Program-made: the position numbers
Origin: a virus
Taxonomy: Duplodnaviria > Heunggongvirae > Uroviricota > Caudoviricetes
DNA: 46,608 nucleotides
Virus record (IMG/VR): IMGVR_UViG_2522572021_000005
Reading direction: 5' to 3' (one strand)
In this document: positions 21,001-30,000 of the stretch, one piece after another
How positions within the stretch are numbered: position 1 is the first letter of the stretch
How the letters are laid out: every line of letters begins with the position of its first letter

Positions 21001-24000
21001 GAACAACTGAAGATGACGGCTGAAATTGTCTGTTCGGTGTTCCGTGTCCCGGCCTACAAGATTGGCGTTGGCCAGCCGCCTTCCAGTGACAACGTGGAGG
21101 CGCTGGAGCAGCAGTATTATTCCCAGTGTCTGCAGACGCTGATTGAGTCCATTGAGCTGTTACTGGATGAGGCGCTGGAAACAGGGGAAAACGAGAGCAC
21201 GGAGTTTGACGTCACCACGCTGCTGAGAATGGACAGCGAACGTCGCATGAAAACGCTGGGTGAATCGGTGAAAAATACGCTTCTCACGCCCAATGAGGCC
21301 CGTAAACGTGAGAACCTGCCGCCCCTTGCCGGCGGTGATGCACTGTATCTTCAGCAGCAGAACTACAGTCTGGAGGCGCTGTCCCGTCGTGATGCCCGTG
21401 AGGATCCGTTCGCGTCTTCCGGGAAAACGTCGTCAGGCACACGCCAGGAGGGCGCGTCTGACGGTAATAAGGCCATAAGCGAAACAGAGCGTGATGCGGT
21501 GAAGGCGATGTTCAGGGGGATACTGCGAAAATGACAGAGCGTGAACTGTCCATTATCCGTGCGCTGGGTGAAGAATTCTCCACGGTGCTGGCGGATTTAC
21601 AGCGCACATTTGAGGGGAAGATGGCCTCGCAGGCACAAGCGTTTGAAGAGAAACTGACTTCCCTGTCGGCGGTATTACAGAAGCATGTGACGGTGGATGA
21701 GGTGCGTCCGGTTCTGCAGGCGATGGTGGATGACGCTGTGGGGCCATTCCGGTACCGCGTGATGGTCGTGATTATGATCCGGATGTACTGCAGCAGGCGG
21801 TGAATGATGCGGTTGCGAATATTCCGGTACCGGCGGACGGCAAAAGTATTACCCCCGATGATGTGCGTCCGATGCTTGAACAGATGGTGAAGGAGGCGGT
21901 AAGCCATATTCCTGTTCCGCGTGATGGTCGTGATTACGATCCGGAAGTACTGAAGCAGGCGGTGAATGATGCGGTTGCGAATATTCCGGTACCGGCGGAC
22001 GGCAAAAGTATTACCCCCGATGATGTGCGTCCGATGCTTGAGCAGATGGTGAAAGAGGCGGTAAGCCATATTCCTGTTCCGCGTGATGGTCGTGATTATG
22101 ATCCGGAAGTACTGAAGCAGGCGGTGAATGATGCGGTTGCGAATATTCCGGTACCGGCGGACGGCAAAAGTATCACCCCCGATGATGTGCGTCCGATGCT
22201 TGAGCAGATGGTGAAAGAGGCCGTAAGCCATATCCCTGCTCCGAGTGACGGTCGTGATTACGATCCGGAAGTACTGAAGCAGGCGGTTCTGGAGGCGGTG
22301 AATGCCCTTCCGGCTCCGCAGGACGGGCGTGATGCCACGGCACTGGAAGTGCTCCCCGCTATTGACGTTCAAAAATCCTTTCCCCGGGGCACGTATGCCA
22401 CACACCTGGGTGGACTCTGGCGGGCGTATGAAAAAACGCACGGGATGCGGGGATGGGAATGCCTGGTTGACGGGGTGGCGGATATCGACGTCAGCATGAC
22501 GGATGAGCGGTTGTTCTCTGTGGTGATCCGGCAGAGCAGTGGCCAGTGTACGGAAAAAACATTTTCCCTGCCGGTGATGCTCTACCGTGGTGTGTTCAGA
22601 ACCGGCGAAATTTACCACCCCGGCGATACGGTGACGTGGGGGGGCTCGTTGTGGCACTGCAACAGCATGACCGGTGATAAGCCCGGTGAAGCCCATTCAT
22701 CAGGCTGGACCCTGGCTGCCAAACGTGGACGGGATGCAGGAGGTGGAAAGTGACAGCATTACTGACACTGGAAGAAATCAAGGCACATCTGCGTATCGAC
22801 CATGACGCGGATGATGAGATGCTGATGGACAAGGTTCGTCAGGCTACCGCCGTACTGCTGGCCTACATTCAGGGCAGCCGGGATAAAGTGATTCGTGAGG
22901 ACGGTGAGCTGATCCCGGGTGAGGCATTAACCCGGATGAAGGGGGCTGCCATGCGCCTGACCGGGATGCTGTACAGGAATCCGGATCTTGCGGAGCGGGA
23001 AGAGCTGATTCAGGGGGAACTCCCCTTTTCTGTATCTGTTCTGATTTACGATTTGCGTTGTCCGACGGTGTTATGAGGAGGGAGGAATGGCAATATCTGC
23101 AGGTCGTCTGACACAGATGATAAGTGTTCTGAACCCGGTGTTAACCCGTAATGCTGCCGGAGAAATGACGGAAGAATGGGTGTCATGCGGGAAAATTCAT
23201 GCGGATATCCGTGGCAGGAGCAGCCGGGAGCGGATGCAGTCCGGTGCGGAAATGGCGCAGGCGGAAATCCGCATCTGGGTGCGCGGTCAGTCCGGCCGGG
23301 AAATCACGGCAGCGTCACGACTTCATGTGCTGAGTGGTCCATGGCGTGACCGGATCCTGAACGTTGTCGGGCTGCCCGTGCCGGATGCGACCGGCGGGCG
23401 TCTGGAAATTCTCTGTCGGCTGGGAGGGGAAAAATGATCGAAACCCTGCTGGATTTTTCGGGGCTGGAGGACATCAGCCGCGATTTGCAGCTTCTGAGTG
23501 GTGCGGAAAATAACCGGGTGCTGCGTGAGGCAACCCGTGCGGGTGCGAATGTGCTGAAAGAAGAAGTGGTGTCACGGGCACCGGTACGCAGGGGAAAACT
23601 GCGCCGCAATGTGGTGGTCCTTTCCCGGTGCTCCCGCGATGGCGGGATGGAATCCGGTGTGCATATCCGGGGTGTTAATCCGGACACCGGTAACAGCGAT
23701 AACACCATGAAGGCGGATAACCCGCGCAATGCTTTCTACTGGCGGTTTGTGGAAATGGGGACCGTGAATATGCCACCGCACCCGTTTGTGCGCCCGGCAT
23801 TTGATGTGCGCAGTGAACAGGCGGCACAGGTGGCGATTGCTCGGATGAACAGGGCCATTGATGAGGTACTGAGACGATGACGGAGGCGGATTTGTATCCT
23901 CATCTGGCACATCTTGCCGGCGGGCAGGTGTACCCGTATGTGGTCCCCCTGCTGGATGGCAGGCCGTCGGTGGCGCTTCCGTGGGTGGTTTTCAGCCTGA

Positions 24001-27000: not shown

Positions 27001-30000
27001 GGGGGCTGCAGCATGGTACACGCTGTACCAGAATCAGGAGCAGGCCAGGGAGTCTGCGCGCCAGTATGCACTGACGATAGATGAAATCGCGCATAAAACG
27101 CCGTCAATGTCTTTGCCTGAAGCCTCAGATAATGAAGGACGAACACGGGCGGCGCTGACAGAGCAGAACCGACTGATTGATGAACAGGCCAGTCGGGTGA
27201 AATCCCTGCAGGAAAAAATCGCAGGATATCAGTATGTTCTGGCGAACCCGGGCTGGACGACCGGTGACGGATTCATGATAAACCATCTGACATCGGTGAA
27301 GACCGTAACGGAAGGGCTTTCTCAGGCAACAGAGCAGCTTGCCGTTGAGCAGTCCCGTCTGGCACAGATGCAGGAAAAAGCGCAGTCCATTCAGGATGTG
27401 CTTGCCGGGCTGGAAGACCGTCGTGTGGCGTTAATTCGTCAGCAGGCGGCAGAGCAGAATAAGGTGTACCAGTCCATGCTGGTTATGAACGGTCAGCATA
27501 CGGAATTCAACCGTCTGCTGGGGCTGGGGAATGAACTGCTTCAGCAGCGTCAGGGACTGGTGAATGTACCGTTACGGCTGCCGCAGGCCACCCTGGATGA
27601 TAAACAGCAGAGTGCCCTGACAAAAACAGAGCGTGAGCTGGCCCTGTCCAGACTGAAAGGGGAAGAAAAAGAGCGTGTCCGACTGGGGTATGCGGCGGAT
27701 GACCTCGGTTTTGTGGGTGATCCGTATCAGGAGGCGAGACAACGTTATATCAGTAATGCCCTGGAAGCCTGGCGCAATAACGAGGCGAATAAACCCAAAT
27801 CCCGGGGTGGAAAATCAGAGACGGAAAAAGCGGAAGACAGTTTTTCCCGGCTGCTGAAGCAGCAGAAAGAGCAACTGGCACTGGTGGGGCAGAATACAGA
27901 GCTGGCGAAGCTGAAATACCAGACAGCGCTGGGTGAACTGAAAACCCTGACGGAGATGCAGAAGCAGGAACTGCTGCGTAACGCGACCCTGATTGACCAG
28001 CAAAAAATCCGGGAACAGTTGCGATCCCGGGAAGAGACACTGAAGAATGAGAATGCGGCTGCGCGTGCGTCGAATGATGCTGAACTGCTGGGGTACGGGC
28101 AGGGGGAGCGAGCCAGAGAACGCATGCGGGAGTTGCAGCAGATCCGCGACAGCTTCCGCCAGAAGGATGCGGACCTTCAGTCTCAGTATCAGAGCGGGGA
28201 TATCAGTGAGGATTTTTACAGACAGGCTCTGGCACAGAACGCGCAGTATCTGAGTGAACGCCTTAAAGACCAGGAAACTTTTTATGCCGAATCGGATGCG
28301 CAGCGTGCGGACTGGCAGAAAGGGCTGCAGGAGGGATTCAGTAACTGGGTGGATAATGCGTCCGATTACGCCTCACAGGCAGCACAGCTTGCGACGGAGG
28401 GTATCTCAGGGATGGTGAATAACATCACGGAGATGCTGAACGGAAATAAAGTGGAATGGCGCAGCTGGGCCTCATCAGTGCTGCAGGAAATATCAAAAGT
28501 TCTTATGAATGCCGCGATTGTCAACGGGATCAAGACGGCGGCAAACAGTATGTCCGGTGCAGGAGGATTTCTCGGCAGCATTGGTGACTGGCTGGGCGGT
28601 GCGGTGGCCAATGCAAAAGGCGGCGTGTATACCTCGGCAAACCTGAGCGCGTACAGCAACAGCATTGTGGACACGCTCACGTACTTTGCGTTTGCAAAAG
28701 GGGCCGGGCTGATGGGGGAAGCCGGACCTGAAGCCATTATGCCCCTGACCCGGGCGGCGGATGGCTCGCTGGGCGTACGCGCGGTGGGCAGTATGAACGG
28801 CAGTGCTGGTCTGGTGTATTCCCCGGTCTACCACATCGCCATTCAGAATGACGGGGCTAACGGACAGATAGGGCCGGAAGCTGCGGGCAGCCTTGTGCAG
28901 CTGATTGACCAGCGGGTGCAGGCGGTGATGCTGTCCATGCGACGTGACGGAGGAATGCTGAGTGGCTGAGATAAAAACGCTGCATCTGGTCCCGCGTGAA
29001 GGGATGCAGGTGAGTGAGAAGCCGTCGGTGGTGAGGGTGCGGTTTGGTGACGGTTATGAACAGCGCCGACCGACGGGACTTAATGCCAGACTGAAGACGT
29101 TTCAGGCGGTGTTCCGGGTGACGGATGAACCAACCCGGCGCTGGCTGGATGAATTTTTATCCTGGCATGGTGGTTACCGTGCCTTTTTGTGGCGACCGCC
29201 GAAACATAACCGGACGGTGAGGGTGGTGTGCCGGGAGTGGAGCGTCACAGATAACGCCAGGTACAGTGATTTCAGTTGTACGATTGAGCAGGTGGTGAAC
29301 TGATGCAGGATATTCGCGAAGAAAGTCTGAACGAGTCGGTTAAGTCAGAGCAGTCACCGCGGGTGGTACTCTGGGAAATCGACCTGACGGTGCAGGGTGG
29401 TGAGCGGTATTTTTTCTGTAATGAGCTGAATGAAAAAGGGGAGCCGGTCACCTGGCAGGGGCGTAAGTATGAGGCATACCCGATTGACGGCAGCGGCTTT
29501 GAGATGAACGGCCGGGGCAGCAGTGCCCGCCCGTCGCTGACGGTGTCCAATCTGTTTGGCCTTGTCACCGGGATGGCGGAGGACCTGCAGAGTCTGGTGG
29601 GGGCCACGGTGGTCCGCCGCCGGGTGTATGCCCGTTTTCTGGATGCGGTGAATTTTGTGGCGGGCAATCCGGAGGCGGACCCGGAGCAGGAGCTGAGTGA
29701 CCGCTGGGTGGTGGAGCAGATGTCGCAGCTGACAGCCATGACGGCCTCGTTTGTGCTGGCTACACCGACCGAGACGGATGGGGCGCTGTTTCCCGGTCGC
29801 ATCATGCTGGCGAACACCTGTATGTGGGATTACCGGGGAGATGAATGCGGTTATCACGGTCCTGCGGTGGCGGATGAGTTCGACAACCCCACCACGGATA
29901 TCCGTAAGGACAGATGCAGCAAGTGCATGCGCGGGTGTGAACTGCGCAGGAATGTCGGCAATTTTGGCGGTTTCCTTTCCATTAATAAACTTTCGCAGTA

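Follow-up and report, generated by a model that had tools for sequence, protein, structure and literature searches.

One-base homopolymer deletions in Prophage 05 of Escherichia coli O145:H28 RM13514 are probably errors of the deposited assembly

The defective lambdoid prophages of enterohaemorrhagic Escherichia coli (EHEC), which include the Sp prophages of Sakai and the CP-933 prophages, carry type III secretion system (T3SS) effector genes and occur in many near-identical copies per genome. They have lost the lysis module and show mosaicism between co-resident prophages. Asadulghani et al. (2009, among the references of PMC7067040) are said to have described such defective EHEC prophages, and the defects documented in this literature are deletions, insertion sequence (IS) insertions and similar lesions. 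The DNA analysed here, a stretch of 46,608 nucleotides (nt) to which we refer as the window, shares all of these properties and carries the effector genes nleL and espN. It is 100% identical to positions 1,407,947-1,454,554 of the E. coli O145:H28 strain RM13514 (NZ_CP006027.1). Its first base is the exact start of Prophage 05 in Table S2 of the genome paper, where the element is described as lambda-like, integrated at potC-potB and equipped with T3SS effectors. Unlike the prophages of the EHEC literature, it shows six one-base homopolymer deletions in one copy, which is not known as a pattern of decay. Most likely the deposited assembly contains consensus errors at these breaks, and the bacterium itself is not mutated there.

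Errors of that kind are described from another genome of the same era. For C. autoethanogenum DSM10061, Illumina and Sanger sequencing revealed 243 discrepancies with the PacBio sequence, in all of which the latter lacked bases, mostly of homopolymers; false frameshift annotations were the result (PMC4687164). As in these PacBio and 454 under-call errors, single homopolymer bases are missing in the window, always in one direction, and genes are split which are intact in the relatives. The window differs from that case in being part of a hybrid assembly, in that one repeat copy is hit instead of the whole genome, and in the length of the affected runs, which is 3-5 nt compared to mostly more than 4-5 nt.

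Another prophage of RM13514, located at ompW (Prophage 07, our locus L009), is near-identical to Prophage 05. In this prophage, in the following called the twin, cro, the tail chaperone gene G and the tape measure gene are intact. The whole window was compared with six related loci. Six 1-nt deletions were found to be private to the window, in contexts which are otherwise identical, and all six are contractions of homopolymers of 3-5 nt. Private 1-nt insertions were not found in this comparison. The deletions are located as follows:

7041 to 7043, plus strand: deletion, GGGG in the relatives; frameshifts cro.
11784 to 11786, plus strand: deletion, CCCC in the twin and the orthologues; intergenic, paa/hokD.
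21740 to 21743, plus strand: first break of the earlier note, G4 instead of G5 as in all six comparators; 6 nt upstream of a tandem array.
25056 to 25058, plus strand: a fourth break, A3 instead of A4 as in all comparators; inside the 42-nt interval 25037-25079.
25883 to 25884, plus strand: second break of the earlier note, GG instead of GGG in the relatives; at about codon 52 of the tape measure gene, separating the open reading frame (ORF) 25729-25911 from 25908-26432.
26423 to 26425, plus strand: third break of the earlier note, CCC instead of CCCC in the relatives; at about codon 232 of the tape measure gene, within the TMP_3 domain, separating ORF 25908-26432 from 26471-28969.

In the order of their positions the runs thus change from G4 to 3, C4 to 3, G5 to 4, A4 to 3, G3 to 2 and C4 to 3. 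Within the part that aligns well, about 28 kb, the private substitutions fall in mosaic patches, with two isolated exceptions (24564 and 25260). A T8/T7 difference at 17997 was considered as a seventh deletion of the window and rejected, as it is a private extra T of the twin: at position 18725 of L009, in the intergenic region before the capsid gene, the twin has T8, and the window and the orthologues have T7.

The earlier note, made from the window sequence, had reported three -1 disruptions, one in a head gene with tandem repeats and two in the tape measure gene. These were found where it had placed them, and in each case the downstream ORF lies -1 relative to the upstream one. The genes concerned are:

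21531 to 22753, plus strand: repeat-protein gene, 407 amino acids (aa), 54-aa repeats and a conserved C-terminal domain; interrupted here, splitting after ...MVDDAVG.
21746 to 22287, plus strand: tandem array inside the repeat gene, 162 nt x 3.3 (TRF score 986, 96% matches).
25729 to 28969, plus strand: tape measure gene, 1080 aa if intact; three ORFs here.

The repeat gene falls into ORF 21531-21803 (frame 0) and ORF 21800-22753 (frame 2), and the tape measure gene into the three ORFs given with its two breaks. An alignment with four relatives pinned the breaks to single missing bases, and the comparison with intact orthologues which the note had proposed gave single ORFs of 407 aa and 1080 aa. 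The annotation in RefSeq by the Prokaryotic Genome Annotation Pipeline (PGAP) already flags the portal gene, G and the tape measure gene as frameshifted. The count of three was incomplete, since the one-base deletion at 25056 in G had been overlooked. Nor are the breaks limited to structural genes, as the note had it, because cro (7041) and intergenic DNA (11784) are hit as well. Such equal lesions in cro and in intergenic DNA argue against a cause which is specific for structural genes. The transition from the portal gene (frame 1) to the repeat gene (frame 0) at 21531-21534 is also a -1 step, formed by a natural ATGA overlap of two genes without any lesion.

Since all shifts are -1, and a P-site slip on the G4 at 21740 would restore the exact wild-type peptide, functional recoding could be considered, in which programmed -1 frameshifting or transcriptional slippage would give full-length head and tape measure proteins. 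We assign next to no probability to it. None of the sites has an X XXY YYZ heptamer; the contexts of the three breaks first reported are GTG GGG CCA, CGC CGG CTC and GTC CCG CGT, and the statement of the note that the tape measure breaks are not at slippery heptamers is thus correct. The orthologues and the twin have single uninterrupted ORFs, so the two-frame layout is not conserved, one of the like lesions is intergenic and one lies in cro, and transcriptional slippage would need longer runs than the 2-4 nt present. With heptamers lacking and the orthologues intact, programmed shifts at the three breaks were rejected.

A genuine recoding signal is predicted between the tail chaperone genes G and T, and it appears to be the only one in the interval. 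In lambda-like phages the G and T genes are joined by a programmed -1 frameshift, as reported by Levin et al. in 1993 and by Xu, Hendrix and Duda in 2004. The window resembles these phages in having overlapping ORFs between the major tail and tape measure genes, a slippery heptamer at the end of G, a T frame which is open in -1, and matches to Phage_TAC_1 and Phage_tail_T. It differs in the heptamer, which is A AAA AAG compared to G GGA AAG in lambda, and in that its G ORF is cut by the deletion at 25056.

25002 to 25375, plus strand: G, tail assembly chaperone gene, interrupted; 'frameshifted' in PGAP; Pfam Phage_TAC_1 match of the intact G (124 aa) at 2.3e-61.
25366 to 25372, plus strand: slippery heptamer, A AAA AAG when read in the frame of G; one codon before the G stop at 25373-25375.
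25366 to 25680, plus strand: T reading frame, -1 relative to G, 105 open codons; match to PF06223 Phage_tail_T precomputed on the annotated product.
25678 to 25682, plus strand: AAT contraction, intergenic; AAT once compared to AATAAT in the closest alleles, a 3-nt repeat.

The contraction of AAAA to AAA at 25056-25058 stops G after 20 codons, so that neither G nor G-T could be made from the native start in the deposited record. The earlier note was right in that the slippery site is present and the T frame open; to call the system intact was overstated.

The twin bears on the origin of the deletions. Between 3000 and 12000 of the window the two prophages show no substitution over 9 kb, and two of the deletions (7041 and 11784) lie inside this tract. 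Between 25079 and 29000 a handful of substitutions is accompanied by three deletions. As a control, the twin itself was compared with its orthologues in RM9872, C325 and RM12761, and no -1 homopolymer deletion was found in it. About 20 orthologous copies keep the affected genes intact.

Independent alleles point in the same direction. With the missing base restored, the repeat protein becomes identical to that of the potC-type prophage of RM9872 (locus L003), and G becomes identical to WP_136161010.1. With two bases restored, the tape measure protein is identical to the intact protein P0336, which is found in RM9154-C1 and several Illumina-type contigs. The draft contig L117 (GCA_004797955.1) has no substitution relative to window positions 25079-26753 (1.7 kb) but differs by +A, +AAT, +G and +C.

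We also looked for the products which the frameshifted ORFs would encode by exact look-up among about 15 billion proteins. The 68-aa cro, 94-aa G, 317-aa repeat-gene and 832-aa tape measure products occur in the records of RM13514 and of RM12581, a sister isolate from the same outbreak, and in no others. The 90-aa product of the repeat gene was also found in one NCBI assembly and in three Logan contigs, all of which are riddled with homopolymer deletions; one of these carriers, L109, shows 150 deletions versus 37 insertions in 17.5 kb. Since this product recurs nowhere but in noisy long-read assemblies and contigs, the change from G5 to G4 is a recurrent technical error. No clean short-read assembly with frameshift-specific products was found in this look-up. 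Four further candidates (60 aa, 104 aa, 174 aa and 164 aa) are absent from the same protein set, which is uninformative as it depends on the start codons chosen by gene callers. The deletions are absent from all complete genomes other than RM13514 and RM12581.

Genuine recent pseudogenisation in the outbreak clone would mean that a lysis-defective prophage decays under relaxed selection and that the RefSeq records are correct. The deletions are present in both outbreak isolates, and holin, endolysin and Rz are lacking. Truly shared pseudogenes do exist in these genomes, namely a fimbrial gene in all copies as well as nleH and integrase in the serU prophage of two lineages, and homopolymers are the usual sites of real frameshifts. 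Nevertheless we regard this explanation as unlikely. Six deletions stand against two isolated substitutions, and a spectrum which consists of deletions throughout is unlike natural decay, in which substitutions should far exceed indels and the indels should be of several types. In mutation-accumulation studies of E. coli, substitutions outnumber indels by about 10 to 1; at this ratio, at least six indels among eight events would have a p of about 1e-5. The twin, which is equally lysis-defective, is intact, as are the 20 or so orthologues, and the lack of any substitution over 9 kb leaves very little time to decay. The absence of the frameshift-specific products from clean short-read assemblies also speaks against it. 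The earlier note had left prophage decay and systematic indel errors as alternatives; it is the error which is favoured, and decay holds only insofar as the lysis cassette is truly lost.

The window is a mosaic. It is of the ompW type from 1410 to about 15460, of the RM9872 potC type (L003) from about 15460 to 25037, and again of the ompW type from 25079 onwards. The deletion at 25056 falls inside the 42-nt switch interval 25037-25079, which is a boundary of an intragenomic repeat. Among 5,426 complete genomes, none but RM13514 and RM12581 has this V/G crossover, which could have come from a real, recent recombination of co-resident prophages or from an assembly join.

The crossover brings up real deletions as a product of error-prone synthesis of the Pol IV type during gene conversion between Prophages 05 and 07. 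Of the six deletions, five are in tracts which the window and the twin have in identical form, and one is inside the 42-nt crossover interval; the uniqueness of the crossover would fit as well. The signature of Pol IV is a -1 bias in short G/C runs, which also counts in its favour. The rates of break-repair mutagenesis, however, are orders of magnitude below one event per about 3 kb. Furthermore the deletion at 21740 lies in the L003-type segment and not in a converted tract, and an assembly join at a repeat boundary predicts the same geometry. Altogether we consider gene conversion a very improbable source of the deletions.

Errors of the assembly, the explanation which we prefer, can be related to the way the two genomes were finished. 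According to the genome papers (the assembly of RM13514 being a hybrid of 2014), the starting point was a draft from 454 and Illumina reads, with 247 contigs for RM13514 and 158 for RM12581, and the remaining repeat gaps were filled by hand, in silico, in Geneious. For the gaps of RM13514, PacBio RS C2 long reads corrected by circular consensus sequencing (CCS) reads were used, for RM12581 CCS reads only. Prophage 05 contains long stretches identical to Prophage 07 as well as the tandem array, which the 454 and Illumina reads would have been unable to resolve. Early corrected PacBio reads tend to under-call homopolymers, so that one base could be lost at scattered short runs. The lost bases would then appear as -1 frameshifts in genes (cro, the repeat gene, G, and the tape measure gene twice), with the twin and the orthologues remaining intact. 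The copy that was filled from PacBio reads is presumably Prophage 05. Each of the six sites is within an intragenomic repeat or at the boundary of one. Short-read contigs end at places such as the site at 25056 in the crossover interval and the site at 21740, 6 nt upstream of the tandem array, which fits an artefact.

The presence of the same lesions in RM12581 needs an explanation of its own. In the first 44,954 bases, which were compared, RM12581 differs from the window at three bases only, and the records of both strains have identical coordinates at least up to ompW (1.59 Mb). Because CCS reads cannot span identical repeats of 9-14 kb, and because of these identical coordinates, RM12581 was presumably finished with RM13514 as a guide, hence the lesions in both. 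The three substitutions (15315, 15374 and 15388) lie within or beside the tRNA-Arg gene and resemble variants of paralogous copies.

Several points weigh against an assembly error. RM12581 carries all six deletions while it differs from RM13514 at three nearby bases, and for independent assemblies this sharing would favour real mutations. With its lysis cassette missing, the prophage is truly defective, which makes relaxed selection plausible. The serU prophage of RM13514 is free of such a pattern, and the error is therefore not genome-wide. At 3-4 nt, the affected runs fall short of the length of most errors reported for C. autoethanogenum (PMC4687164). Finally, the evidence behind the verdict is that of deposited assemblies and published methods.

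The serU prophage served as a second control. In comparison with that of RM12761 it shows no homopolymer-deletion pattern, only mixed changes of 4 nt, 12 nt and +1, and its nleH and integrase frameshifts are common to two lineages and represent real old pseudogenes. A genome-wide excess of such errors in RM13514 was therefore rejected, as the serU indels are mixed and natural-looking; the pattern is local to Prophage 05. A comparison of coding sequences per kb between RM13514 and RM13516 was discarded as too confounded. In the Rac-site Prophage 08 of RM13514, the gpJ gene is annotated as frameshifted (L113, 42271-45767). A paper on O145:H28 prophages (PMC7067040) makes no mention of frameshift, sequencing error or pseudogene.

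The portal gene, which PGAP labels as frameshifted too, is a different case.

20170 to 21534, plus strand: portal gene of the HK97 family, 454 aa, complete alone; Pfam Phage_portal E=6.6e-81, NCBIfam TIGR01537 portal_HK97 355.9 bits.
21515 to 21519, plus strand: G5 tract at the portal/repeat junction; natural allele, G6 fuses both genes; PGAP labels every G5 copy 'frameshifted portal'.

With G5 the portal gene ends at 21534, the repeat gene beginning at 21531 in the ATGA overlap. With G6 one ORF of about 860-916 aa results, as in C325 and in the phrog_2271 model of 859 positions; locus L007 has G6 and an ORF of 915 aa. Exact scans of IMG/VR gave 57 loci with G5 and 41 with G6. The alleles mostly track the haplotypes of the flanks (3 of 47 haplotypes are mixed), and PGAP calls the portal gene frameshifted in nearly every relative as well, the cause being the G tract. 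The G5/G6 junction is a natural dimorphism and not damage, and the PGAP label is wrong. The distant homologue P0208 is also a portal fusion. The codons at the junction are AGG GGG ATA CTG CGA, which are rare in E. coli, and the prophage encodes tRNA-Ile and tRNA-Arg.

The intact repeat gene is present as a 407-aa ORF in L003 and matches positions 455-859 of phrog_2271. In the protein an N-terminal helical segment is followed by the 54-aa repeats, which contain the motif IPxPxDG, and by a C-terminal domain of about 140 aa which is conserved. Strains differ in how many copies of the 162-nt (54-aa) repeat they have; stand-alone products have 353, 403 or 407 aa, with corresponding differences in the length of the fused ORFs. 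The C-terminal domain (22322-22750) belongs to a large phage family with 5139 representative clusters at E<=1e-3, the members of which are almost all stand-alone proteins of 200-500 aa. Homologues of this domain reach the Pfam threshold of CBM_5_12, and some carry collagen triple-helix repeats upstream of it, in place of the 54-aa repeats. The repeat protein of the window itself has no significant Pfam, NCBIfam or PDB sequence match. An assignment to a family failed, as the thresholds for CBM_5_12 or Collagen are reached by homologues only. A fibre-like or decoration-like role of this protein is only a guess. The intact orthologue of the tape measure protein is of the lambda/HK97 type, with the Pfam domains TMP_3, Phage_HK97_TLTM and Tape_meas_lam_C.

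The gene order was derived from the PGAP annotation and our scans. First come int, xis, exo ... cI, cro ... Q, tRNA-Ile, tRNA-Arg, terS and terL. After terL follow the 645-aa protease-capsid fusion, a 73-aa ORF, the 454-aa portal protein and the 407-aa tandem-repeat protein, next connector, head closure, gp10-like, gp17, major tail, G, T and tape measure genes, and then M, L, K, I, J, Lom, the tail fibre gene, nleL and espN. A block of low GC content (37000-44000, 29-37% GC), situated downstream of the tail fibre genes, holds the T3SS effector genes nleL and espN.

18021 to 19958: protease-capsid fusion gene, 645 aa, Peptidase_S78 and Phage_capsid (HK97-type).

Like the head module of the HK97 type, that of the window has a fused prohead protease and major capsid protein, a TIGR01537 portal protein and an HK97 gp10-like gene thereafter. 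It differs in that the capsid gene precedes the portal gene, and in the 407-aa repeat protein, which follows the portal protein and is fused to it in G6 alleles. The location of the capsid fusion gene upstream of the portal gene is an unusual order.

In the region from Q, tRNA-Ile and tRNA-Arg to terS (14937-15736) no holin, endolysin, Rz or HNH genes were found. About 25 complete genomes have ompW prophages with the same lysis-less junction, and in most of them ISEc20 is inserted there. It follows that the lysis module has really been lost, and long ago, a feature common to many independent assemblies.

In the RefSeq records of two reference outbreak strains, RM13514 and RM12581, Prophage 05 probably has at least six errors of one base, which make cro, a head-module gene, a tail chaperone gene and the tape measure gene look like pseudogenes. 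Whoever regards this effector-carrying prophage as structurally dead, or counts pseudogenes in both genomes, would thus be misled. If the deletions were real, one of two twin prophages would be decaying in an unusual way, by deletions only; as scars of conversion they would mean a natural, recombination-coupled frameshift mutagenesis which inactivates one prophage copy. The value of the finding lies mainly in curation. Biologically, the portal dimorphism may matter more: in this head module, which is widespread among E. coli prophages, the portal gene is either separate from the downstream gene of the repeat protein with its CBM5/12-like domain or fused to it, two stable forms that are one G apart and one of which is treated as broken by automatic annotation.

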